Source: Acutalibacteraceae bacterium
Lineage (GTDB): Bacteria > Bacillota > Clostridia > Oscillospirales > Acutalibacteraceae
Reading direction: 5' to 3'
Assembly (NCBI GenBank): GCA_045579585.1
Contig: JAZNMK010000009.1
Span: 3,705-67,704, forward strand
Length of the DNA stretch: 64,000 nt
Shown here: positions 193-51,971 of the stretch, in pieces
Layout: each line of letters opens with the position of its first letter
Numbering within the stretch: the first letter of the stretch is position 1
Notes under the pieces: model-generated
The model's database searches: none
Told to the model about the DNA's origin: nothing
The model's input: only the letters and a program-made list of their open reading frames with translations
Position numbers and translations under genes: made by a program

Positions 193-220
193 CGCTGTTC
201 TTTCCTTCCTTTTTAAAAAC

Positions 221-797
221 GCAAGCGGATCTGTAAGCCGGGTTCTGTCGTTTAAGGCAACTATCTTTCTAGGCCCTGCGTTGCCGCAGCGCTCAAGCCA
301 CCTGTTGAAGTATAGGCCGAGCAAGCCACTTCGGTCGGTGTTGCTTCGGATAGGGTTTACAGGGCCGTACAGTCTCCTGTACGCCGGTGAGCTCTTACCT
401 CGCCTTTCCACCCTTACCTGCCAGGGCAGCGAGAACAAATCCGAACACGCCCAAAAAACAAAATTTTCAAGCTTTTTCGGCGTTTCGGTCTTGAAAGGTG
501 TCACCTTCCTGCGACCTCAGCCACCCCAAAAGCAACAAAAATATTTGCATTTTGGGTCTGCGATTTTTTATTGAGTTAATCTGATGCAAATCTTAACGAT
601 AAGTTGATTCAAACAAACCAATAAAAAACGTATTCAGATTCATTCTCACTACCCTGAGCAGGCGGTATATCTCTGTTGCACTGTCCCTAAGGTCACCCTC
701 GGCGGCCGTTAGCCGTTATCCTGCTCTGTGAAGCCCGGACTTTCCTCGTCGGCAGGGGTGATAAATCCCTGACGCCGCAGCTGCCCAATCCGCTTGC
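221..797 (-). ncRNA. rnpB: RNase P RNA, bacterial type A, with a ~235-nt expansion at the P9 position
   Basis: Reverse complement contains GAGGAAAGTCCGGGC (733-747), CAGTGCAACAGAGA, GGTAAGGGTGGAAAGG (403-418), GGTAAGAGCTCACC and ACAGAACCCGGCTTAC (233-248). P1 pairs GCAAGCGGAT (797-788) with ATCCGCTTGC (230-221). Order and spacing match E. coli M1 RNA except for the insert at 422-656. Confidence 0.88.
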
Positions 798-32676: not shown

Positions 32677-32785
32677 CATAAAAAATCAGCAGGGCGGAGA
32701 ACGTGAACAGGTCCAGTAAAAACGGACAATGAAAAAAGGAGCCTCCTATGGTAGAATTAAAGAAACTACCATAGGAGGTTTTGTT

Positions 32786-33121
32786 ATGCCCCGAAGCTAT
32801 CGGCACATAAAAGATTATGAGAAAGAAATTCTTGAATTAAGAAAGCAAGGAAAAACAAAACGGGAAATTTGTGAAAAATATGGATTTTCAATGAAACAAT
32901 TAACCAACTTCATTACTCGACATAATACAAACCAAAAGAAAGTTGCAGCAGGTATAGCTTTAAAGAAGAAAGGCAGGCCACCGAAAGATTATGTGGTGCG
33001 AGAAGAAGATAAGATTGCTGAACTGAAATATATCCTTGCCCGAAAAGAAGCAAAGATAAAATCGTTGGAAATGGAAAATGAGTTGATGCGGGATTTTCTC
33101 TCGCTCACAGAAAGGAAGTGA
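32786..33121 (+). CDS. IS3-family transposase OrfA (HTH)
   Basis: MPRSYRHIKDYEKEILELRKQGKTKREICEKYG HTH segment followed by a leucine-zipper-like C-terminus. AGGAGG RBS before ATG 32786. Confidence 0.85.
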   Translation: MPRSYRHIKDYEKEILELRKQGKTKREICEKYGFSMKQLTNFITRHNTNQKKVAAGIALKKKGRPPKDYVVREEDKIAELKYILARKEAKIKSLEMENELMRDFLSLTERK

Positions 33122-33972
33122 GAACAAGTGTAAAGTTTATGGTAATCTACCGTCACAAAGACAAATATTCAATAAGTGAAATGTGCCGATTCTTCAATGT
33201 GTCAAGAAGCGGTTACTATGACTATGTCAAAAGAATAGATATACCTGCAAAGGATTTACCGTTAGCTGAAAAGATAAAAGAATGTCAGGACAAATGCGGT
33301 AAAACATACGGTTATCGCAGAGTACATATGTGGCTTGAAAGAGAAAACATACATCATAATCCCAAAACAATATTAAGAGTTATGCAGAAATACAACCTGT
33401 TATCGGTAGTCAGAAGAAAGAAATACCGCAATTACGGTGATTATCTTCACCGTTATCCCAATCTGCTTAACAGAGATTTCGCCGCTGACAGACCGAACCA
33501 AAAGTGGGTTACGGATATATCATACATCAAAACACAGCAGGGAACACTTTATCTTTCTGTAATCAGAGATTTGTATGATAACAGTATTGTTGCATACAAA
33601 ACCGGTACAGAACAAAATATCAATCTTGTCCTAAGCACAATCAGAGCAGCCAAAAGAAAAGAGAAGGTCACTGCAGAGCTGCAACTCCACAGTGACCAAG
33701 GCTTTCAATACACATCTCATCCGTATTTTAAGCTAACTCAATCATACGGCATAACGCCTTCAATGTCAAGACGCGGAAATCCATATGATAATGCAATGGC
33801 TGAAAATTTCTTTTCTATTCTTAAAACAGAATGTATTTACAGGGTTAAACTGAAAACTTATGAGGATGCTCGCATACTCATAAGCGAATACATACATTTT
33901 TACAACAACGAACGAATCCAATTAAAAACAAAACTGACTCCGCTTGAAAAACGAAGTCAGTATGTCGCTTAA
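33118..33972 (+). CDS. IS3-family transposase OrfB (DDE/rve integrase core)
   Basis: DDE triad context WVTDISYI, HSDQGFQYTS and NPYDNAMAENFF. It is in the -1 frame relative to orfA; GTG 33118 overlaps the orfA stop (GTGA). Confidence 0.88.
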   Translation: MRTSVKFMVIYRHKDKYSISEMCRFFNVSRSGYYDYVKRIDIPAKDLPLAEKIKECQDKCGKTYGYRRVHMWLERENIHHNPKTILRVMQKYNLLSVVRRKKYRNYGDYLHRYPNLLNRDFAADRPNQKWVTDISYIKTQQGTLYLSVIRDLYDNSIVAYKTGTEQNINLVLSTIRAAKRKEKVTAELQLHSDQGFQYTSHPYFKLTQSYGITPSMSRRGNPYDNAMAENFFSILKTECIYRVKLKTYEDARILISEYIHFYNNERIQLKTKLTPLEKRSQYVA

Positions 33973-34063: not shown

Positions 34064-34612
34064 TTATCTGTCGAATTCGTCACGGTTGATGTAATAGCCT
34101 ACAATGAAGCTTTTGGGGTCTGCTACTGCGCTTACCGAGTGGTATTCGTACCTGCGTGCAGTGCGAGGGATGCGGTTGTAAACGTAGATTTTTCCTTTAT
34201 AGTTTTCGACTGCATAAGCATGGATAGGGGAGAAAAAGCGTTTGCCTGTCCATCGGAAAACAATACCGCAGAATCCCGGTTCAAATCTGTCGCAGAAGGT
34301 GCGTGAATTACGGTCCAGATTAACCGGCAGATAGTGTGATGAAAAATAGCGGAAAGCGTGCAGAGGATGCACGCCTAAAATTCCGAGCGGGGTTTTAGCC
34401 TTTATATACAGTTCCCGTGCGGTATCGGCCAGCAGTGCAGGTCTGTTAAGCAGAATCATAAGGTTGTATACCGCTACAATACCGCTGCCTGCTGAGGCAA
34501 AATTCTTAAGACCGAATCGCATTTTTGAGACTTTTGAGCGCAGGTGACCGTTTACAATGGCGTTTGGTTCACCTACGGCTTTGTTGTGTTTGTAGTTGAT
34601 TTTTTCGAGCAT
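34064..34612 (-). CDS. hypothetical protein (182 aa)
   Basis: ORF with coding-like composition. Its start (ATG 34612-34610) overlaps the dCMP deaminase stop codon by 1 nt. No motif I can assign. Confidence 0.5.
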   Translation of the reverse strand: MLEKINYKHNKAVGEPNAIVNGHLRSKVSKMRFGLKNFASAGSGIVAVYNLMILLNRPALLADTARELYIKAKTPLGILGVHPLHAFRYFSSHYLPVNLDRNSRTFCDRFEPGFCGIVFRWTGKRFFSPIHAYAVENYKGKIYVYNRIPRTARRYEYHSVSAVADPKSFIVGYYINRDEFDR

Positions 34613-35109
34613 CAGACAAGCTCTTCCTTAAAGTTAATGATGACCTCATCGTGGTCAAGCTTAATTTTTGTCAGCTTAACTCCGGCGGCTGTGAGCATAC
34701 GCTTTGAGGCGCGAGTGCCCCAGGTATCTGCGTACTTATCGGAGAGGTAGATAACCTCGCTGATGCCGCACTGGATGATAGCTTTTGCGCACTCGTTGCA
34801 GGGGAAGAGAGCAACGTAAATTTTGCAGCCCTTGAGGTTGCCGCCTGCGTTGTTGAGGATTGCGTTGAGCTCAGCGTGGCAGACGTAGGGATATTTTGTG
34901 TCGTAGTTGTCGCCCGAGCGCTCCCAGGGGAAATCCTCATCGCTGCAGCCGAGAGGGAAGCCGTTGTAGCCGACTGACATAATTTTGTTGTTTTGGTTTA
35001 CGATGCAGGCGCCTACCTGTGTGTTGGGGTCCTTGCTGCGCTTTGCAGAAAGCATGGCAATACCCATAAAATATTCGTCCCAAGAAATATAGTCACTGCG
35101 TTTAGGCAT
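34612..35109 (-). CDS. comEB: dCMP (deoxycytidylate) deaminase, ComEB-type
   Basis: CHAELNAI and PCNECAK zinc-binding motifs. Start set to ATG 35109 (MPKRSDYISWDEYF), 7 nt after GGAGG. Confidence 0.88.
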   Translation of the reverse strand: MPKRSDYISWDEYFMGIAMLSAKRSKDPNTQVGACIVNQNNKIMSVGYNGFPLGCSDEDFPWERSGDNYDTKYPYVCHAELNAILNNAGGNLKGCKIYVALFPCNECAKAIIQCGISEVIYLSDKYADTWGTRASKRMLTAAGVKLTKIKLDHDEVIINFKEELV

Positions 35110-35147
35110 GAAAAAACCTCCGTAATCAATGTTATTCAATCCTGTCC

Positions 35148-35175: not shown

Positions 35176-35696
35176 ATAAAAACGGTATATTTTTTGAGGT
35201 GAATCGGATTAAAAATGTGATATAATGCAGCGAAATATCGAAAACAATATGGTAAATTAGAATTAAATTGTAAACATTCTGTAAACTTTTTCGATTTTTC
35301 GGAAGAAAAACAGCAGAAAAAATGCATTTTTTGAGGAGAAAAAAGCATAAAAACGGGGTGGAATCGTGGCGTTTTTTTGGGTGAGTGGAGAGACGTGTGA
35401 CCAAAGTGAAGGAGAGTAAAAAAGCGGTGTGAAAGGTAAATTTTTCTGCAGAAAAAACATTGTGATGAATGTGGAAAATTTCAACGGAAAAACAGCAACG
35501 TTTTTTGCAAAGAAATGGTTGTAAATGGCTTAAAATCAACGCTTATCGGCATTTAGGAGAGTAGCGGAATCGGTGGCGAAAAGAGCGAAAAAAAGTGAAA
35601 AGCGCCTGTTTGTGCATTGCATACAGTTGAGGGGCTGTTTATTTCGTCAAGATGCACAAAGTTATGACTGAGCAGAGTGATTTTATGCGGAAAATG

Positions 35697-35725
35697 TTGA
35701 CACAAAAACAAAAAATTGCTATAGT
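35697..35725 (+). promoter_or_regulatory. near-consensus sigma-70 promoter driving the giant gene
   Basis: TTGACA (35697-35702), 17-nt spacer, TATAGT (35720-35725). It is the only strong plus-strand promoter match upstream of 36287. Confidence 0.6.
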
Positions 35726-35731
35726 AAATGC

Positions 35732-36286
35732 GTATCAGTATATATATTACTAAGTCTTGTATGCTGTCAAGCCCCGATACACAATATGTTGATTTTGCCG
35801 AATTTCGTACGAGCTGCGAATTACGGTACGGTCGGCAGATTGAGGGCTGCGGCAGTGCAAAAAGCAACCCGACGAGGGTCAGGCGGAGGGTTGTGGGAGC
35901 AAATGCAAGGCAAAAAGCTTCGCTGCACAAGGTGCGGTTGCCGGCGGTCAGGCCGGCAAAGGCGCTGCGGCTGTTTTTCCGGTGGCGGCAGCGGCGAAGT
36001 TTCTCGTAGGGGATGGGTCTCCCGTCCCGAGCGGACGATATTTTCAATCGGAGCGGGGGACGTGTCCCCTACTCGCAACCGGTTAGGTTGCAGCACCCTT
36101 GCGGTGCGTTGAGCAAAAACACTTTTGCGGTTTATGCCGCATTTACCGTCCCTGCGAAATTCAACCGGAGTTTTATCGCAACCCTTTTGTCGGGCTTTAT
36201 GCCCGGCAGCCCATTCGGTCAGAGTGGGTTCGCAGTCCCTTGCGGATTGCAAAAGTCCAAACTATTCTCAAGGAGGAAATTCGATT
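35732..36286 (+). promoter_or_regulatory. ~555-nt structured 5' leader of the giant gene (unclassified RNA element)
   Basis: GC-rich block 35800-36260 in an otherwise AT-rich spacer. Nested hairpin 36006-36072: GTAGGGGA/TCCCCTAC, then GTCTCCCG/CGGGGGAC with a G-U pair. Further hairpins at 36075-36091, 36093-36107, 36126-36141, 36189-36207 and 36232-36250. No credible ORF. Confidence 0.5.
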
Positions 36287-39200
36287 ATGAGAATAACGAA
36301 GAAAATCATCTCATTGCTTCTCGTAGTTTCGATGATGGCATCGTTCTTTGCTATGACCGGCTTTGTGGCGAGTGCAAGTCTGCAGAATCAGCAAGTGACA
36401 GACTTTGGCATTCATTTTGACGACACAACGCGTAAGCTCAAAGTGCTTCAGCTGCCCGATATTCAGACATCGGTCAGCGGCGGCTCTATCACCGAGCGTA
36501 CGAGAGAGACTATCCGCTTGCTGATGCAGCGCTACAACCCCGACGTTATCCTGCTTACAGGTGACCAGACTCAGGGCGGCAGCAGCTCTACAAAGTCACA
36601 GTGGGAGAGTGCAATTAACAGAGTTTACAACACATTTTCTCCGTACATGAAATCCACCTGTAAGGTTATCGCAATGCCCGGTAACCATGAGTACGATTTC
36701 GGCTCACTCAACCACCAGTGGGAGTACCAGATGGACAGATATGCATACTTTGTCGACTGGGATAACAACTTCAGCACCATCGACCTTGACGGTGCACCCG
36801 GTGCAGGTAACGTTACAGTCAGCGCAAGCTCAACAAACAAAGCTGTTGCGCTCAACTTTGCCATCTTCAACTCAAAGGGTGACGATGACGAAGGCTATCT
36901 CCGTCCCGGTGGAGACAACGAGACTGCATACCAGCAGATCGTCAACTGGTATACCAACATGAACAACACCCTTGCAGGCAGCCAGTACAGCTATAAGGCA
37001 CAGAAGACGGGCGCAGCTTCGGCTTACGTTCCCACCTTTGCTGCACAGCACGTTATCCTGCAGGAAATCTACACCACAGGTGCAATTATTGCAGGTGACG
37101 CATCAAACGGTGTTCCCGCAATTGAAAAGTACAGTTCGCTTAACCAGGGTAAGGCTTATCTCCGCCTTGATCCTGACAACAATCCCGGCGGTGCGATGAA
37201 CGAGGCTCCCTGTCCGTCAACACTCGGTGCAGGCAGCACGGCTGCGCTCTACAATGCGCTCCTCACTCCCGGTAACCTTCTCGGTATGACCTTTGGTCAT
37301 GACCATAACAACTATTTCGACGTTGTTGACGATAACGGCTTCCACTTCTATATGGGTGGTGCTCTTACACAGGAGAACTACAACGACGACCAGAACCCCA
37401 AGGGTCGTTATTTTGAGTTCACACTTAACGACACAACAGGTGACGTTGACGTTACTTCAGAGGTTAGGAGCTACACTCAGCTCTCTGTTACAAGCTCCGC
37501 AGACGTTACATCCGACCGTGTTGAGGTCATCAACGGTGACGGTGCTCAGCTTGTCAACACACTCTCTGTTCCCAAGACTGTTTACATCGGTGCAGCGGAG
37601 AACCTTGCAGACGTTCGTGCAAAGCAGGAATTCGGTAATGTTGTACAGACCCAGCTTCTTGACTATAAGACCAAAACGCCATACGACCAAGACCTTTCGG
37701 TCAACTACTGTCTGCCCGCAGACGCAACGGATATCGTGTTCAGCGCTCACAGAACAATCGGTAACGCTCAGGCAACGCTCACAAACCTCGGCACCGAAAC
37801 AACAAGCGAGGGCGTGCTCTATAAGTACGCCATCAAGGGCGAGAGCGTGCTTACTGCAGGCGAGTACATCAACTACAGCGTAAGATATAAATACAACGGT
37901 GTTCAGTACGAAATCCGTAACAGCACAGTTGTTGAGAATATCAAGCAGCCCGCAGGTTACAACGATTGGTTCCGCGGCTTCCGTGAAAGCAACAACTCCA
38001 AGCACTATGTTGACCTTGCTTATATTGCTACGCTTTCCGGCCCCGGTGCATACAGCGTATCGCGTGAAACATCGCAGAACAGCGGTGAGTTCAACTCCAA
38101 CACCTACTTTAACTACTCTCTTATGATTGCCGACGTTGACCAGTCATGGTACAACAAGGCGGGCGACACACGCTTCAGCATGTTCCGCTTCAGCCCCAGC
38201 CGTAGAGAAGTTACGGAGGGTTTGGTTTCACAGCGTGCAATCTACGCTCCTCCCAGAACAGATATCTACCTTGACGCTTCAGCAATGCCGAAGGTTTCCG
38301 CAACTGATACCAGACTTGACACAGGCGTCAGCATCGATTTCTGGATTCAGAAGGACCTTGACCGTGGCTTTTCAGAGACCATTGCCGGTATCGGCTTCTA
38401 TCCCGGCGATCAGGACTTTAATCCCTCCGGCGCAACCATCGACTGGGACAGAAACGTCAGATACAGCAGCTACAATGCAGCTGTTACCGCAGAAAACAAC
38501 TCAACCGGTAGCGGCGGTACAATCGACGAAGCAAAAATCTTCTTCTATGAGACGTTTGCTCACGAGGAGAGCCTTTACGGCCTCGGCACAACACACGTCA
38601 ACGGCAACTACCTGCCCGACAATAAGCTCGGTAATATGGCAGGTCAGTACAAGGGTTATCCCCTTGTTGTTGACAGCAAGGATGCAGTTCTTGCCCTCAA
38701 CGGCAAGGATATGACAATGTTCACAGGTGTGCGTAATAAGGGTAGCTCCGACGGCGGTTACCGAATCCTTCTCTATGCGGTAGCTCCGTACTACCTCAAC
38801 TTCCACACCTACGATAAGGGCGCGCTCCGTGAGCTCACAATGGCTGAACTCATGAACCCCCGTAAACAGAGCGATTACCCCAATGCTACACAGCAGATGT
38901 GGGACGCTTATATGTCTGCTTACCAGAATGCTCTTACCTGCTACGTACAGAATCAGACAACGCAGACAGATGTTGACAACTTCAATACAGCCCTTAATAG
39001 CGCTATTGCAGCCCTGCTTAACTCCAACAAGGGTAAGCCCGACGAGAGCAACCTCCTTAAGGGCACAAGCCAGTTTGAATCAATTGATATTCCGCCTATC
39101 ATTTATGTAAGCAGCGACTCAAAAATCCAGACTGCTGCTCCCTACACAGACCGTGTTATCAAGTTTGACGTTCCCTCGGGCGCAACAAACGTAAGCTGTG

Positions 39201-48200: not shown

Positions 48201-50239
48201 CTGCAAAGGAAGCTTTCATAAGAGCACTCAACTCAAATGTTGATTACATCACTGCATTCGATGCAGAAAGCCAGAATTCGGCATCAACCAAGTATATTCC
48301 GTTCGGTGCAGGTGAGAACTACAATCAGCATCTCGCATTCATCGACAACGGCACACTCCTGTTTGCTCACGTTGCAGACCGTTTTGGTAACGTATGTAAC
48401 AGAATCATCGAGGTTAAGAATTACGATCAGCTCGCTCCTGAACTCACAGCAGAGGGCACAGGTGCTGTTGCAGTTACAGAGCCCGGCGGTTCAGGCGTAG
48501 CAAAGGTTGACCTGTTCGAGTATATGGGTACTCAGGGTAGCTCGCTCTACATTGATTATCTGTTTGCTAACCTCCACGTTAAGGATTTCACATACGTATC
48601 GCAGGATAACACCTTCACAATCAAGGCAGGCGCTGCAAGCGCAGGCAAGCTCTTTACGGTTGCTGTTACAGATAAGGCAGGCAATGTCGGTTCTGTACCG
48701 GTATACGCTGATGAGAACGGTGATATCGTTGTTACGGTAGTTGAAACATTCGATAACGTTGTTAAGTATGCAGCTGATGATACTAATATCGACGTCAACA
48801 CAGGTGAAGATCTTGATATCATTGAGTTTACGTTCAACAGCAACGAGAGAATTATCCTCAACTACGTTGAACCTTCATCAATCATTAAGGCAGGTCCCGA
48901 CGGTAACGTCTTTGCAGACAAGAAGAACGTACCGCTCAATATCACAACCAAGTCTGAGGTCGAAGCTGTTAAGCTTTACAATGTTGGCACAGGCACAGAG
49001 GAAATCTGGACTGTTGATAATGCAACCGTTAAAGACAACGGCGACGGCACAAAGACATGGACAGTTAAGTATAAGTTCACAGAGGGTGAACACAACTATA
49101 TCGCAACCGCAAAGGTAAACGGCGACTGGGAGACATTCGGTGTTGACTTCAGCTTCACAGCTACAACAAAGAGCATCACAGTCAAGCTTATGGTTTCCGG
49201 TATAGGTAAGATCAGATTCGGTTACAACGAAGGCAACTACTCCAACGTTCCTGTTATGTCTCAGAAGACTGTTCCCTATGGTTCAGTTGTTACTCTTGAG
49301 GCTACTCAGACTGAGGAAGGCTCTGACTTCTACTACTGGATCAATAACAGCTCCAACAGAATCATCAGTGCAGCAACGACTTATGAATTCACAGCTGTTA
49401 CAAATATGGATCTTACAACTCAGTTCACTACTAACGAATGCTTCACAAACGATAAGAGACTTGTAGTTTATGTAAATAACGCTGAAAACGTTGTCGAAAA
49501 CTTTGAGCTTGCTGAAGGCGAGGATTATATGGTTCCCGCTGCTCCTTCACTTCCTGACCATGTCTTCAAGAGCTGGAGCATGACCAAGGAAGAGATCCTT
49601 GCAAGCGATGAAATGATGATAGTCGTAAGACCCGTTTACTCACTTGTTGTTAAAAACACAGTTACCCTCACTGAGGGTAACTGGACAACAACAGGCGCAG
49701 GCGTATATGAGTCTGTTGATAACGAGAGAGCTGTTGTTACCGTAAGCGCTTCTGCTGCAGATGACGCAGGTGCAAGCTTCCTCTACTGGTTTGATGCCGA
49801 AACAGGCGATATCGCTTCATATAACAGAACTTATAGCTTCCACGCTATTAAAGATACTGAGCTTACACCCGTTTACGGTGATGCTTCAGCTGTTACTCCC
49901 GCTCCTGTTGCCAGAATTTCAACAATCAAGTATGACTCAAGCTCAAAGAAGGTTAACTTCTATGCAGAACGTTCGATTCCTGCCGATTATGATCTTATCC
50001 AGACCGGCGTTATCGTAACAAAGACAGCTTCTGTCGGCAATGATGCACAGGCATTCATCCTCGATGCAGCAGGTGTTGGCAAGGGCGTGTCAAAGAGCAC
50101 TGCAGCTAACGGTTTCTATACAGGTGCTGTTGCAGCAACTGCAGGTACAACCGTTTATGCAAGAGCATATGTCATTTACATGAACGCAGACGGTGATATA
50201 ATCACCTCCTACAGCCCGATCTCTTCATACACTGTATAA
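36287..50239 (+). CDS. giant secreted multidomain protein (4650 aa): signal peptide, metallophosphoesterase domain, FIVAR-like helical modules, Ig/InlB-B-repeat-like C-terminal modules
   Basis: Uninterrupted 13,953-nt ORF. ATG 36287 follows AGGAGG (36271-36276) and gives the signal peptide MRITKKIISLLLVVSMMASFFAMTGFVASA/S. MPP motifs: LPDIQ, LLTGDQTQGG, MPGNHEYD, FGHDHNN. Recurrent W..Y.....A......Q.D.D.....L modules. No LPXTG, SLH or choline-binding anchor seen. Confidence 0.9.
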   Translation: MRITKKIISLLLVVSMMASFFAMTGFVASASLQNQQVTDFGIHFDDTTRKLKVLQLPDIQTSVSGGSITERTRETIRLLMQRYNPDVILLTGDQTQGGSSSTKSQWESAINRVYNTFSPYMKSTCKVIAMPGNHEYDFGSLNHQWEYQMDRYAYFVDWDNNFSTIDLDGAPGAGNVTVSASSTNKAVALNFAIFNSKGDDDEGYLRPGGDNETAYQQIVNWYTNMNNTLAGSQYSYKAQKTGAASAYVPTFAAQHVILQEIYTTGAIIAGDASNGVPAIEKYSSLNQGKAYLRLDPDNNPGGAMNEAPCPSTLGAGSTAALYNALLTPGNLLGMTFGHDHNNYFDVVDDNGFHFYMGGALTQENYNDDQNPKGRYFEFTLNDTTGDVDVTSEVRSYTQLSVTSSADVTSDRVEVINGDGAQLVNTLSVPKTVYIGAAENLADVRAKQEFGNVVQTQLLDYKTKTPYDQDLSVNYCLPADATDIVFSAHRTIGNAQATLTNLGTETTSEGVLYKYAIKGESVLTAGEYINYSVRYKYNGVQYEIRNSTVVENIKQPAGYNDWFRGFRESNNSKHYVDLAYIATLSGPGAYSVSRETSQNSGEFNSNTYFNYSLMIADVDQSWYNKAGDTRFSMFRFSPSRREVTEGLVSQRAIYAPPRTDIYLDASAMPKVSATDTRLDTGVSIDFWIQKDLDRGFSETIAGIGFYPGDQDFNPSGATIDWDRNVRYSSYNAAVTAENNSTGSGGTIDEAKIFFYETFAHEESLYGLGTTHVNGNYLPDNKLGNMAGQYKGYPLVVDSKDAVLALNGKDMTMFTGVRNKGSSDGGYRILLYAVAPYYLNFHTYDKGALRELTMAELMNPRKQSDYPNATQQMWDAYMSAYQNALTCYVQNQTTQTDVDNFNTALNSAIAALLNSNKGKPDESNLLKGTSQFESIDIPPIIYVSSDSKIQTAAPYTDRVIKFDVPSGATNVSCVVVNAGNDNVNSAVTLSPASGNGNSTHYEYTVSDGTVSAGGSIYYKLSYTLPQDLNKDGKNDTYTQYAASYVKGVPNTEGVWINQTRRSRSVLSRDTRVSARVTLSMDSNIFSSRGVSGIMALYGGVQGTSFHTTVVNGSTNDYTRHSGSAVNWAVGTNEWKGDGNGSGYTAAGRVLFYNRRGHVKFNSGQPYFNGLYNYSTDSTINTGGNNSDEYVVAHLYFDPQATGASVAPRFKLSITTHNAGESDTPTIYKYWDANAYSGVNYSGDYVSKSPNVSSSGMFTQSATGSNSSWASDGTISLGDNAVYETYLNTNKSLSGFTNSATYSRLIIHAEKKDSNEYNNALMGFGFVINRVDRSQAHQAIKWATGQELVEPSALFNEDEMDPEWWSQWRGEIMKAYTKCGNLWETTDFDTSLLINLWQNPVYKDADYSQLVSTLKDIAGDAVENESIPDFDAITFAISQFDDQRYQGQRYARDMFVNNATDLINVIKNRTTVYGEVDSNGIAASDSAGNLHDSHLDVRFQKYIDDYATDLQEAWERLRLAPADYTAFNKYANYYNETDDTILFMRDEYAGYNNDGTAKNYANEKALASGVYTYTTYIAFKNSLNIDPTLKKPSETAVIGSLPRLYPQTFTYKNVALPDVPDTTVCLYNTARDAYEALEFRRAGEYYSADGSYTEGGITYYADYNKQDRGANYVYTPVFRTSYNSLTADIKDAGFVVTDNKVKVTYNNGNNGDIDGDGQPDANEIWVLKGDRSPLKPINPWTDASWGGASYGFSDAYKEHILNETSTYKSTNESSKWVLALFVEAEILTDIATVDYYYDKLVPSSYDLGQYNYQKDEVFAPYELGGGSYNAAMALLANNGYVPCDAQGNPITGGAVWYEAASWSEYQASKEILPNIIDGATLKENQDAINYATGVIYQKREELQHKLITEFMVKDSEGNIKTFDSILADLNAKRAEIQGVQVDVFGLRGNEDNVVTPKTYADATQNGATQGPLFVKHNYYNDDYIDNLIGKITVVNSFADKDAEGKDKTLAGYLEQYLTAVNDFTKLYNDRANPAYVNKANTYYLEILLNKDWIPPYDKYGTENAKPTGGWFLGEEFDGSSWYTEESWEEYVTARNNAVSFFGEPGATQGATAFDGYKVFTGTYYGTASQPVLGQYTVLNQGAKFNIDLDPASPTYGKPIAVDGSDLTGSVNKATYDLVVAYYKLTFKKVSDFDGTIEGVPGTGYNGIITELNGLISEKENAKVDVVILNANGELEIVQRSIYGDEAIAAVKDLAAKIAALANEDLGPKYLEYVEKVNACKKAIDELKEVPVYLDGWNAIFAHLNENAGDVATISESGNMTAYFNAVYDGFNPDGIYAEGGTQSINNIFTMKAFADSMSPTAKSAQAQYNGFVTNLYNELNALALTPKQVTSAAQAAMVKLSQASQPAYDPIQLNGRAKVQGISKFSPASVTAATNLVTTVNSTKVTLWDTKPAVTGYNNGAGVIVDGSLADEIWAAVGLANASGTKDYNGADRDNRYLLVEGGQFVDALNDAIAYAKDELYEADGVTVKQFEVVTGEGEIISAPVFTDESVTDLVNALAAAVVTDTTTQAQIDQWVFDILENTDIDNKIPLLAEDGTFYGTLNNTAEDEGLKYKPADYTYLDKELGTAFTSESEGAQAIIDMIWLDNGDGTYTLDPQYGNTNGAKYFTSETWTPYYTNYSNALNTNIVPRDLTANDQDKINAYTTGIYTTRNELKWNGVEESVWTQIDNVGNKIGKLESQTFTVFTFTNSEVQILEDGTRVLTAPTIGEKSVSAYGDVSHILSLWATFNANYLKSQLDITKQAEMLEKLQEINDIYNSLETKRFDTDENNEFTEGVRNLVDSFIAGTYTFNGFSSSDGIGTYVPDYQAVAQGTNVNAYEQRVRDEQRIFIQSKLNALYTIIGSGMEAGDVYLDNASGDRYDTAMDAVNTIATELYEYLTTTPAQYAGFGLDMRQGMYDYLSTEIVVAVDYRFAATKPLYTKSVPMFTPEALSGVKEVLDGTGEDGNFGEFGNVDNWPMISQLDSSVGIELTENTAVEQLTFQRPIGYDEETGETSYEEVYVNSGILSFVNGYSYIYGDVHGAVNGHDTVALDWLVNTAVVYDDTDVYFLADTNGPVDINGDGVLFHYTMDAGVNRDGEWYNEGYGTDLNQDGTRYYLASDPENRVTGSEYGGWFTNATYEAVMQQKDDSAAYIDYAGYTFGGGPVAIPVREQIENEPTEYGVCWNAENRNAYINAIQQDQSDVDGAAADLYEKLCLLELLPATDAYRYVAGLIYDALGLVPLYEDDDITGIIIEDGDGELVEHKDDEGNKLGGYLYNLSLMDDLTSYTPVYDEEGNYVIGCYSQQLPDSYYDAKNGKSGADAVYAIRDLLREKISDGVVTIDQADALVLADENSVKSEILTALKGLGLGKADLSLITSLVAAFLFNSPGNENALGSYDINDKGIGKQFFDTHFTLGKGGNAAVYIDDPLMKLATDKYHASGFYDYTNYTDDSILPIIQFLENKDIVSDKVSAQAYDYVAMGFNIVFNPEIDSTVCGSLYDTPATQQDMIDGIYRELVTLINALELDKAYTVDLIKQIDAADGIMLNEDIYDHEAVDTGGNNIWNEFVEARKNAENYKNATVINEYQVGQAKERLEVAIRALVLYVDTFAPIVTIHNTQTDLSKFYAEHATELSNTIHSASQMVTASYMEPGLGGYTLYVYTNQLNPHIVVSLKDTTSVLNGDGSARTVTASKPEKLSVSAQAMNGVSANVITPVLDATTGRPLSSVSTKLTGATTVSAQTAKNAEGTYDADSSAYIILNPQFSDADGTQQAAAYTIGATDSAVTKDAATNEITEKANGVESFNYANNPELIETTSKGKITVFVYYMNSMPADGSDDGFAADGSVNGSAILTYAENDGLAADEWNSRYGLLRKFNGSVKNWEFSDINKDLNEGAVYVDPTFGENNFGSFIYKLDPTATKGLDYDIAKIYFEQGADAAKEAFIRALNSNVDYITAFDAESQNSASTKYIPFGAGENYNQHLAFIDNGTLLFAHVADRFGNVCNRIIEVKNYDQLAPELTAEGTGAVAVTEPGGSGVAKVDLFEYMGTQGSSLYIDYLFANLHVKDFTYVSQDNTFTIKAGAASAGKLFTVAVTDKAGNVGSVPVYADENGDIVVTVVETFDNVVKYAADDTNIDVNTGEDLDIIEFTFNSNERIILNYVEPSSIIKAGPDGNVFADKKNVPLNITTKSEVEAVKLYNVGTGTEEIWTVDNATVKDNGDGTKTWTVKYKFTEGEHNYIATAKVNGDWETFGVDFSFTATTKSITVKLMVSGIGKIRFGYNEGNYSNVPVMSQKTVPYGSVVTLEATQTEEGSDFYYWINNSSNRIISAATTYEFTAVTNMDLTTQFTTNECFTNDKRLVVYVNNAENVVENFELAEGEDYMVPAAPSLPDHVFKSWSMTKEEILASDEMMIVVRPVYSLVVKNTVTLTEGNWTTTGAGVYESVDNERAVVTVSASAADDAGASFLYWFDAETGDIASYNRTYSFHAIKDTELTPVYGDASAVTPAPVARISTIKYDSSSKKVNFYAERSIPADYDLIQTGVIVTKTASVGNDAQAFILDAAGVGKGVSKSTAANGFYTGAVAATAGTTVYARAYVIYMNADGDIITSYSPISSYTV

Positions 50240-50309: not shown

Positions 50310-51971
50310 TTGTACGAATTATCATTCTGGGTTAAAATGTTTTACGGTTTTTTCAGGTGGCTTATTTCGTTAATTCTCGGTATTTCTATCGCAACTCCCT
50401 TGCCGGCTTACAATATTGAAGAGCCTGTGGGCGACGTAATGGAAGTTACCGTTATGAGCTTCAACGTTTATATTGCAGGTGCAGGCAAGCAGTCACCGAA
50501 AAACAGAGCCCCCCTTGTTGTTAAAACAATCCGCGGTGAAATGCCCGATTCGTTCGGCCTTCAGGAGGCAGATAAGGCATGGGTTGACCGTATCAGTGAA
50601 GCTATGCCTGAGTACGCCTGGGTAGGCGTCGGCAGGGATGACGGCGCTGAGGGTGGCGAGTTTTCACCCGTATTCTACCTTAAGGATAAATACACTCTTG
50701 TTGACAACGGCACCTTCTGGCTTTCCGAAACACCTGACGTGCCCTCAAAAGGCTGGGATGCTATGTATAAGCGCATCTGCACCTGGGCAATTCTTGAGGA
50801 TAAGGTGAGCGGTGAGCAGTATGCCCACTTCAATGCACATATGGATCATCTCGGCGCCGAGTCACGTGCAAACAGTGCAAAGCTTATAGCGGAAAAAACT
50901 GCCGCACTCAATATTCCTGTTGTTGTAACGGGCGATTTCAATACGGACGAGGGTACTGCACCCTATAACACAATGGTTGCAAACGGATTTATGGATACCA
51001 AGTATGCCGCTGACGATACAATGTCTATGGGCACTTACCATAATTTCGGTATAAATAACGTTACCAAGAAGGGTGCATCTCCTATAGACTTTATTTTCAC
51101 AACCTACGGTTATACGAAGGTAGACAGTTATAAGGTGCTTGGTGATAAGGTGGACGGTCAGTATTCCTCCGACCATTATCCCGTTGTTGCAAAGCTCAGA
51201 TTCAGCAAGGAGCCTGTTGGCGAAGCAGGGCTGAGAATTATGTCTTTCAATCTTCGTTTCAAAGAGCCTCTTAAGCGCCTTCAGGATTTGACAGACGTTA
51301 TCGCTGATGCACATCCCGATATAATCGGCACTCAAGAGGGTACACCCGATTGGATGCATATACTCACAACTGAGTACGCAGGTATATACGGCTACATAGG
51401 TGTTGGCAGAGATGACGGCAAAAACGAAGGTGAGCATTCGGCAATCTTCTACCGCCTTGATAAATATAGTGTAATTGACAGCGGTACTTTCTGGCTTTCA
51501 ACTACTCCCGACGTGCCTTCGCTCGATTGGGATTCGGCATGTAACCGTATTTGTACGTGGGCTGTTTTTGAGTGTAAGGCGGATGGCAAGCAGTTCGCGG
51601 TGCTCAACACTCACCTCGACCACGTAAGCTCACTTGCTCGTGTTAACCAGGTTAAACTTGTAAAAGAGAAGGCGGACAGCTTTGATATTCCCGTTGTTAT
51701 CACGGGCGACTTCAATGCTACCGAAGAAGATCCGGCAATCACAACACTGACGCAGAGTGGATATACGGATAGTCGCTATGCTGCTCCGATTACTGATGAT
51801 TCGGGCACCTACAACGGCTATGAAAAGGGCCGTGACGATTATGAGCGCATCGATTATATCTTCTTCAACTCAGGCTTTGAGGTAACAAAGTACGATGTTG
51901 TTGACGGTATCTTTGCCTCTGACCATTTTGCTATCTATTCTGACCTTCTGTTCCAGGGGGAAGTTAATTGA
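50310..51971 (+). CDS. tandem-domain endonuclease/exonuclease/phosphatase (EEP) family protein with an N-terminal membrane anchor/signal
   Basis: Two homologous halves (about nt 50472-51210 and 51231-51954). Each has SFN, Q/LQE, GRDDG..GE, TFWLS.TPDVPS, H.DH, TGDFN and SDH(Y/F) motifs. TTG start lies 7 nt after GAGGAG. Confidence 0.85.
   Translation: MYELSFWVKMFYGFFRWLISLILGISIATPLPAYNIEEPVGDVMEVTVMSFNVYIAGAGKQSPKNRAPLVVKTIRGEMPDSFGLQEADKAWVDRISEAMPEYAWVGVGRDDGAEGGEFSPVFYLKDKYTLVDNGTFWLSETPDVPSKGWDAMYKRICTWAILEDKVSGEQYAHFNAHMDHLGAESRANSAKLIAEKTAALNIPVVVTGDFNTDEGTAPYNTMVANGFMDTKYAADDTMSMGTYHNFGINNVTKKGASPIDFIFTTYGYTKVDSYKVLGDKVDGQYSSDHYPVVAKLRFSKEPVGEAGLRIMSFNLRFKEPLKRLQDLTDVIADAHPDIIGTQEGTPDWMHILTTEYAGIYGYIGVGRDDGKNEGEHSAIFYRLDKYSVIDSGTFWLSTTPDVPSLDWDSACNRICTWAVFECKADGKQFAVLNTHLDHVSSLARVNQVKLVKEKADSFDIPVVITGDFNATEEDPAITTLTQSGYTDSRYAAPITDDSGTYNGYEKGRDDYERIDYIFFNSGFEVTKYDVVDGIFASDHFAIYSDLLFQGEVN

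Follow-up and report, generated by a model that had tools for sequence, protein, structure and literature searches.

A structured 5' leader of about 555 nt upstream of a 14-kb secreted-protein gene in ruminant-gut Acutalibacteraceae

The giant gene, its leader and their distribution

The 64,000-nt stretch of contig JAZNMK010000009.1 from an Acutalibacteraceae bacterium, hereafter the window, carries a 14-kb gene encoding a secreted protein. The gene is preceded by a single-copy, plus-sense, non-coding and structured 5' leader of about 555 nt, with which it is predicted to be co-transcribed. The leader consists of four parts, namely a multi-branch 5' domain, a three-way junction, a 67-nt hairpin and a tail of exchangeable hairpins (Table 1). 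The promoter that an earlier note on this DNA had placed in front of the leader was found precisely at the proposed position, being the sole strong plus-strand promoter match between 34500 and 37000, and both of its hexamers are invariant across the 14 orthologous leaders compared. The ATG of the giant open reading frame (ORF) lies 561 nt downstream of the promoter, and transcription is predicted to start at about 35732. In alignment A1 (10 species) conservation begins approximately 90 nt 5' of the -35 box. The two halves of a conserved inverted repeat, which lie some 120 and 75 nt 5' of the predicted start, may constitute a candidate operator or activator site, i.e., a putative regulator-binding site for the leader promoter.

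The product of the 13.95-kb ORF carries a signal peptide, a metallophosphoesterase domain (aa 52-169) and one FIVAR domain, the remainder being unannotated. A C-terminal anchor motif was looked for and is absent, and the first 500 aa have no sequence relatives among solved structures. The leader itself is richer in GC than its surroundings upstream, as the earlier note had claimed (0.48-0.64 over 35750-36250 vs. 0.24-0.45 in the 600 nt upstream). The same note's view that no credible ORF lies within it also holds, since the four overlapping ORFs (93-164 aa) are broken in relatives by stops and by length differences that are not multiples of three. In the cross-species comparison, such stops and indels exclude overlapping ORFs on both strands.

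The leader set (n = 14) comprises the window and 13 further orthologues obtained by three retrieval routes, all of the latter in metagenome-assembled genomes (MAGs) of Acutalibacteraceae/Clostridia from ruminant guts. The first 500 aa of the giant ORF used as query returned nine loci in species-representative genomes, all of them Acutalibacteraceae/Clostridia MAGs and one titled as dairy-cattle colon, while a protein database search added one locus. Three more distinct leaders, including JGI and Logan contigs, were found with the adjoining 181-aa ORF (orf181) as query. In all 14 cases the leader extends over 524-953 nt between the invariant promoter and the common start region, and both sequence and structure are kept upstream of every orthologous giant gene found, the lack of which would, according to the earlier note, have refuted its RNA element. 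On its other side the leader is flanked at all loci by the divergent operon of a dCMP deaminase gene and orf181. Genomes with orf181 at only 55-60% identity have kept this operon, while the giant gene and the leader are both missing at the locus.

No second copy of the leader was detected in the window or in the fetched loci (nhmmer, four leader blocks). Viral contigs, searched with four patterns and then with nhmmer, gave seed matches only, with no real match, and blastn of the hairpin against plasmids gave no match. Metagenome contigs scanned for the core 23-mer yielded only four unrelated hairpins resembling repetitive extragenic palindromes (REPs), in a scan that was not exhaustive, since the JGI contigs L023 and L024 carry the 23-mer and were missed. 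The leader is thus single-copy and always linked to the giant gene, relatives without the gene lack it, and the family is confined to about one genus, a genus-level clade of ruminant-gut Acutalibacteraceae.

Fold and conservation of the leader

The plus strand of the leader (35732-36290) has a minimum free energy (MFE) of -247.9 kcal/mol, compared with -197 +/- 6.8 in 100 dinucleotide shuffles (z = -7.5), and the orthologues L003 and L007 gave fold z-scores of -6.7 and -6.3. The minus strand reached -202 kcal/mol (z = -4.6), 46 kcal/mol short of the plus strand. The earlier note had pointed to G-U pairs that exist only in the plus sense; our analysis revealed at least 10 invariant G-U pairs in the supported helices, and the fold is thus specific to the plus strand. 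For the well-aligned helices, alignment A3 was combined with a hand-drawn structure. In this alignment 94.1% of cells are paired, vs. 37-49% when the partners are slid, and double changes occur in 19 cells vs. 8.5 +/- 2.5 in shuffles (0/500).

RNAalifold on MAFFT alignments mis-registers the variable region, and for this reason folds of each species and a partner-swap test were used, the latter comparing the pairing of a species' own 5' and 3' strands with that obtained with other species' 3' strand (n = 14). For P1, P2 and P4 of the multi-branch 5' domain (Domain I), none of 20000 permutations attained the cognate mean. P2 and P4 retain pairing across many different sequences, P1 on few events. 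Covariation is robust for P4, where 13 distinct strands and no fewer than seven different closing stems were counted. The three-way junction and the long hairpin hardly vary, and their pairing is therefore only predicted.

Downstream of the long hairpin there are one or two hairpins of the H5 type per species, with variable loops and stems of the forms GCACC/GGUGC, GCAACC/GGUUGC, GCAGCC/GGCUGC and GUACC/GGUAC. H6 and H7 are found in every species, and H8-H10 are deleted or replaced in L006, L007, L014, L020 and L026, REP-like units taking their place in L006 and L020. All six hairpins listed in the earlier note (the long one, which it called three-tier, H5a, H5b, H6, H8 and H10) could be located at the proposed coordinates. 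The 3' half of the leader (36176-36250) turned out to consist of generic hairpins that some species have deleted or replaced by repeats. The CUUGC and UUUAU loops that the earlier note had described as shared in mirror order are true of the window, but loop identities vary freely in relatives, and those of H8-H10 are not conserved apart from GGUCAGA.

The leader is better conserved than the protein encoded behind it. Over the first 500 codons of the adjacent ORF, four-fold degenerate sites have a mean pairwise identity of 0.67 (range 0.53-0.86), and among 11 species 28% of four-fold sites and 50% of all coding columns are invariant. The corresponding figures for blocks of the leader range from near-fixation to near-complete drift (Table 1). 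Such a mosaic of fixed and variable blocks argues for selection on the RNA, beyond recent common descent alone.

A short motif, GGUCAGR, recurs in apical loops of the leader. Three plus-strand copies are present in 555 nt, where about 0.07 would be expected (window-wide there are 18 on both strands of 64 kb). The first copy stays in the P4 loop while 13 distinct stem strands carry it. Furthermore, the internal loop GAUACACAAUAUG and the segment ACCGUCCCUGCGA are invariant and predicted to be unpaired.

A number of additional pairings were considered. The earlier note's long-range pairing of GAAUUUCG (35800-35807) with CGAAAUUC (36155-36162) is present in the window, but relatives do not conserve the 5' partner, and CGAAAUUC is engaged in local pairing within H7. 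A helix GUAUCA/UGAUAC between the 5' end and the internal loop was not supported, as L023 alters one side with no compensation. By inspection, pairing of GGUCAG loops with UUGAU (internal loop) or UGACC (early ORF) is broken in some species. An alternative pairing of UCGUAGGG (36004-36011) with CCCUGCGA (36151-36158), both invariant, would be possible, but 8-bp matches are expected often by chance in 558 nt. The Shine-Dalgarno (SD) sequence has no consistent partner across species (mean unpaired probability 0.1-0.56); its partners differ in every species, and no conserved helix covers it or the start codon.

Table 1. Features of the leader and of related loci; positions refer to the window unless a locus handle (L and a number) precedes them.
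Feature	Position	Strand	Remarks
Inverted repeat TTTGTGCA ... TGCACAAA upstream of the -35 box	35609-35616 ... 35653-35660		conserved; alignment A1, 10 species
Sigma-70-type promoter TTGACA-17-TATAGT	35697-35725	+	TG-extended -10; score 11/12 plus TG
AU-rich 5' end GUAUCAnUAUAUAUAnnACUAnG	35732-35752	+	weak 5'-proximal hairpin possible
First 68 leader nt			invariant columns 43/68
Domain I, multi-branch fold	35753-35912	+	separate MFE folds agree in 9-10/11 species
P1	35753-35762 with 35903-35912	+	partner-swap: cognate -11.5 vs. non-cognate -9.1 kcal/mol
P2	35763-35775 with ~35838-35856	+	partner-swap: cognate -13.0 vs. non-cognate -9.5 kcal/mol
Asymmetric internal loop GAUACACAAUAUG, 13 nt	35776-35788	+	conserved
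P3, variable tip	35787-35800 with 35824-35837	+	partner-swap not significant
Variable region	35800-35910		invariant columns 3/112 (3%)
P4 hairpin	35864-35894	+	partner-swap: cognate -17.4 vs. non-cognate -10.9 kcal/mol
GGUCAGR motif no. 1, P4 apical loop	35877-35883	+	looped in 14/14 local folds
Core three-way junction, 82 nt	35918-35999	+	helices 98-100% paired
Junction block			invariant columns 53/86 (62%)
Junction closing helix CUUCGCUGC/GCGGCGAAG	35918-35926 with 35991-35999	+
Junction arm 1, GGUCAG hexaloop	35938-35959	+	loop-adjacent pair varies (G-C, G-U, A-U)
GGUCAG motif no. 2, arm 1 hexaloop	35946-35951	+	14/14 species
Junction arm 2	35964-35989	+
Long ('three-tier') hairpin, 67 nt, GUAG...CUAC ends	36006-36072	+	most conserved leader part; only the tip varies
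Block with the 67-nt hairpin			invariant columns 65/75 (87%)
H5a	36075-36091	+	in only 3/14 species
H5b	36093-36107	+	H5-type hairpin
H6 hairpin	36126-36141	+	14/14 species; 100% paired, one-sided G-U changes
Single-stranded segment ACCGUCCCUGCGA	36145-36157	+	invariant, 14/14 species; predicted unpaired
H7 hairpin, ACCGG-containing loop	36154-36179	+	14/14 species; inner stem AAUUC/GAAUU or UUUC/GAAA
H8, optional	36189-36207	+	H8-H10 in 9/14 species
H9, optional, GGUCAGA loop	36210-36228	+	as H8
GGUCAGA motif no. 3, H9 loop	36217-36223	+	9/14 species
H10, optional	36232-36250	+	as H8
SD AAGGAGG (36270-36276) and ATG (36287)	36270-36289	+	invariant
Giant ORF, 4650 aa	36287-50239	+	ATG in frame; 13.95 kb
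Isolated 23-26-mer sites	L010 2171-2196; L011 6409-6431; L012 6502-6531; L013 3225-3247
Leader insertion	L006 3422-3607; L014 4381-4570		same in L025, L026

Palindromes, insertions and neighbouring genes

The long hairpin is formed by GTAGGGGA...TCCCCTAC, starting with GTAG and ending with CTAC at the DNA level. Its 5' arm alone (36006-36028) can form an 8-bp hairpin, GUAG followed by GGGAUGGG-UCU-CCCGUCCC, which is a REP-like unit (as DNA, GTAG followed by GGGATGGG-TCT-CCCGTCCC). Four unrelated metagenome contigs, all GC-rich, carry the exact 23-26-mer (C)GTAGGGGATGGGTCTCCCGTCCCG as a hairpin standing on its own; in L012 it apparently lies within a coding region, and in L011 and L013 it precedes a secreted-protein gene, in surroundings rich in repeats. 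These hairpins look like members of a cross-phylum family of GTAG palindromes. Since the 5' arm matches them, the long hairpin may descend from a REP-type palindrome. Unlike mobile REPs, it is single-copy and occupies the same fixed site in all 14 species. The window holds no second copy of the hairpin, even with three mismatches, and no enrichment of GTAGGGG. No gene for a REP-associated tyrosine transposase (RAYT) turned up among the scanned window ORFs, for which no dedicated test was made.

In relatives, the gain or exchange of repeat elements is restricted to the spaces between conserved modules. In L006, L014 and L026, a stretch of 186-190 nt composed of hairpin repeats, AATCC(C)TCGGTCA...GACAGCTCC(C)TTT...AAGG(G)AGC, is inserted at one and the same position following H5. 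The carriers are not closest relatives, and the site would be either an insertion hot spot or that of an old insertion repeatedly lost. Furthermore, REP-like units (GGACGGCCRATGRCCGCCC followed by CTAC) occur three times in L006 (3518-3923) and twice in L020 (2482-2597), and among the 56 fetched loci they are present only inside these two leaders. Such true REP insertions vary from species to species, whereas the position of the leader core is the same in 14/14.

Regarding the surroundings, the divergent two-gene operon lies at 34064-35139 on the minus strand and consists of a dCMP/ComEB-like deaminase gene, whose product is 94-98% identical within the clade, and orf181, which has no Pfam or NCBIfam match and is 75-87% identical across the clade. 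The pair is also retained in more distant genomes without the giant gene. An IS3-family element (32729-33972, plus strand; orfA 32729-33121, orfB 33118-33972 with rve/HTH_21) is located between a GH88 gene and orf181. It appears to be a recent insertion in this genome, as it is absent in L001, where the GH88 gene abuts orf181. Further upstream, a polysaccharide-biosynthesis cluster (11892-32676) includes Polysacc_synt_2, glycosyltransferase, ATP-grasp, GINT1_N-like and GH88 genes. Downstream of the giant ORF lies a gene for a 553-aa Exo_endo_phos protein (50310-51971, plus strand). This gene may have its own promoter, given that the final 65 nt of the giant ORF contain, ahead of it, a near-consensus promoter-like site, TTTACA-16-TATAAT with TG (50175-50202, plus strand). 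At the other end of the window, a class A RNase P RNA (218-796, minus strand) measures 579 nt compared with a 367-position model, owing to an AT-rich insert of about 230 nt in the P12 apical loop. Finally, the ENA contig L021 (1-33) breaks off right within the leader promoter, and the end of L022 lies about 0.5 kb upstream of the deaminase gene, suggesting a tendency of assemblies to break at the leader.

Possible function and relation to known RNA classes

The leader lies outside all described RNA families, in agreement with the earlier note, which had called it unclassified. At gathering score, Rfam 15 matched only the RNase P RNA in the whole window; the 13 orthologous loci gave no hits. 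At E <= 10 with permissive filters, the region 35500-36400 gave only chance fragments of snoR12 and SorX (16-20 bits). Within the leader there is no conserved plus-strand terminator; the sole weak terminator-like site on that strand (36023-36037) falls inside the long hairpin and its U-tract is not conserved. With neither a leader terminator nor a conserved helix sequestering the SD, there is no recognizable riboswitch expression platform, and a riboswitch with a standard platform, which would be a ligand-responsive riboregulator of the kind that the earlier note had considered plausible, is disfavoured.

We tentatively favour the reading that the leader is a factor-binding, stabilizing or licensing RNA for a very long message and not a classical attenuator. 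The elements that stay fixed amid drifting stems, namely the GGUCAGR apical loops, the GAUACACAAUAUG internal loop, the ACCGUCCCUGCGA strand, the junction and the long hairpin, would then be likely contacts for a factor acting in trans, of which a protein is the most likely kind. The G-rich, almost fully paired fold could safeguard both the 5' end of the message and its 555 untranslated nucleotides, for example by shielding the end from RNase, by keeping Rho off these 555 nt, or by tuning message lifetime or elongation. In this manner the leader would set the yield of full-length mRNA from a message that takes minutes to synthesize, and would not serve as an on/off switch of a terminator or ribosome-binding site. 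It seems rather doubtful that the leader represents an undescribed class of large cis-acting RNA that enables the synthesis or survival of a 14-kb message. Its core of about 345 nt would then comprise the multi-branch domain, the junction and the long hairpin, and its GGUCAGR loops and invariant strands would either attract a dedicated partner or make direct contact with a ligand or RNA polymerase.

Several observations weigh against the factor-binding or stabilizing reading. Where transcription starts, and that it runs on into the giant ORF, are both predictions. The clade is shallow, as the identity of the neighbouring deaminases shows, and has about two main branches, so that single-pair covariation, such as that of the two covarying pairs of P1, amounts to few independent events. 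The most conserved parts never vary and are thus uninformative for or against the drawn pairing, and an all-against-all covariation scan for pseudoknots was dominated by the two-clade phylogenetic signal and was likewise uninformative. A classical 5' stabilizer would be expected to have a 5'-terminal hairpin, but that of the leader is weak and its register is not kept: it is predicted for nt 1-19 in L003, L005 and L014, which belong to one sub-clade, and is shifted in the window, which belongs to the other. In addition, the third GGUCAGR hairpin is dispensable in 5/14 species. No binding factor was found, there being no RNA-binding or NusG-like gene among the scanned ORFs nearby and nothing relevant in the literature on binders of GGUCAG loops.

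Among the alternatives, it is unlikely that the leader is a passive array of hairpins, originating in part from REP-like or other mobile palindromes, that insulates a long untranslated stretch and owes its conservation to a shallow clade and the cost of stem breakage, with no specific regulation. The identity of the long hairpin's 5' arm with the isolated GTAG-palindrome hairpins of unrelated metagenomes is in line with such a view, as are the REP-like and other repeat units acquired by relatives, the dispensable 3' hairpins with their free loops and the genus-level distribution. However, the unpaired GGUCAGR loops, GAUACACAAUAUG and ACCGUCCCUGCGA are invariant compared with 28% of the neighbouring four-fold sites, neither a further hairpin copy nor an excess of GTAGGGG was seen in the window, and the core keeps its place in every species, unlike true REP insertions. 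Less probable is a new riboswitch class, in which Domain I and/or the junction would be a small-molecule aptamer controlling translation or mRNA decay. Domain I and the junction do resemble an aptamer, with covarying stems enclosing invariant internal-loop and junction nucleotides, though the core is invariant without covariation in a shallow clade. The ligand could be, for example, a nucleotide-related signal, given that the leader stands upstream of a secreted metallophosphoesterase gene followed by the Exo_endo_phos nuclease gene. Long riboswitch-bearing leaders are also known from clostridial adhesin genes. Nevertheless, the permissive Rfam search brought up no riboswitch, no expression platform was recognized, the distribution is very narrow, and a conserved structure of about 345 nt far exceeds the usual aptamers.

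Less probable again is an antitermination or elongation RNA of the EAR/put kind, the second function suggested in the earlier note, with the leader staying with RNA polymerase through 14 kb. In position the leader does correspond to such elements, its 555 nt opening an exceptionally long transcription unit with an ORF of 13.95 kb, and it is cis-encoded and single-copy. EAR is strongly conserved without an expression platform, and the strong conservation seen here would have a parallel there. No positive evidence emerged, though: there is no match to EAR or any other Rfam family, no conserved UNCG hairpin of the LoaP type and no gene for NusG, a KOW protein or a NusG paralogue among the scanned ORFs of the 64-kb window. 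The terminator-like sites of the intrinsic type between 36287 and 52600 number 12 on both strands vs. 13.3 +/- 3.8 in shuffles, with three weak ones on the plus strand. Moreover, one translated ORF requires less shielding against termination than an operon of several genes. Highly improbable, finally, is the reading in which the region upstream of the giant gene encodes a trans-acting RNA, either separate or processed, such as a protein sponge with GGUCAGR loops. The repetition of one loop motif on hairpins recalls CsrB/RsmZ, and the long imperfect hairpin could conceivably be an RNase III-type processing site. On the other hand, no terminator precedes the ORF, only two copies of the motif are universal, and the RNA is always linked to the giant gene and missing where the gene is missing.

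Few structured RNAs of bacteria have several hundred conserved nucleotides, and most of the known ones have proved to have unusual biochemistry. In Bacillota transcription can outrun translation, and how bacteria complete a 14-kb message and keep it intact is poorly understood, especially in this phylum; the leader offers an experimental handle on the question. If the GGUCAGR loops bind a factor, there would be a new RNA-binding regulator in uncultured and abundant ruminant-gut bacteria. Should the class with a core of about 345 nt prove real, it would represent either a novel recognition motif together with a novel mechanism, or a class of riboswitch or antitermination RNA that is itself new. 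If the leader is a passive insulator, it would indicate that REP-like palindromes can become fixed parts of leaders and that leaders tolerate repeat insertions between modules.

With EAR and the put element of phage HK022 the leader shares its nature as a structured and conserved 5' leader RNA of an unusually long transcription unit, with no terminator or SD-sequestering platform of its own. It is about 4-5 times larger than these elements, serves a single ORF instead of an operon and has no downstream excess of terminators to bypass. Leaders recognized by LoaP also come from Bacillota and place one or more hairpins before a very long transcript, and the binding of a factor to a hairpin is the principle proposed here as well. 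The hairpin recognized by LoaP has a UNCG tetraloop and stands ahead of a leader terminator (PMC12691694). A leader of this type was rejected, since the terminator is absent here and the only tetraloop of this form is the UUCG loop of H5b in L023. The large ornate RNAs OLE, GOLLD, ROOL, HEARO and raiA resemble the leader in extending over several hundred nucleotides, in their multi-domain build with invariant unpaired nucleotides and in their occurrence in uncultured gut or rumen Bacillota. They are stand-alone genes, whereas the leader is fused to an ORF, matches none of their covariance models, has a far narrower distribution and devotes about 40% of its length to exchangeable simple hairpins.

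The long hairpin has in common with REPs and REPINs, the GTAG palindromes mobilized by RAYTs, the form of an imperfect palindrome flanked by GTAG and CTAC, and genuine REP-like units exist in L006 and L020; in contrast to them it occupies an invariant orthologous site within a larger conserved fold and is single-copy in the window. CsrB and RsmZ likewise present one short motif in several hairpin loops. Theirs are GGA loops binding CsrA/RsmA, while the leader has GGUCAGR in two or three copies (two universal, one optional) and is linked in cis to its ORF. The leaders of aprE, cry3A (STAB-SD) and slpA combine, as here, a strong promoter and a long structured 5' untranslated region with a gene for a secreted or surface protein, and message protection is the proposed role there as here. 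These stabilizers measure from tens to about 350 nt and use a 5'-terminal hairpin or an SD-like site, and the SD-like GGAGGG at 35886 of the window is not conserved in relatives. Given its invariant loops, the leader calls for something more specific than a 5' stabilizer. Among known systems it is thus a new family of a familiar kind, an orphan structured mRNA leader.

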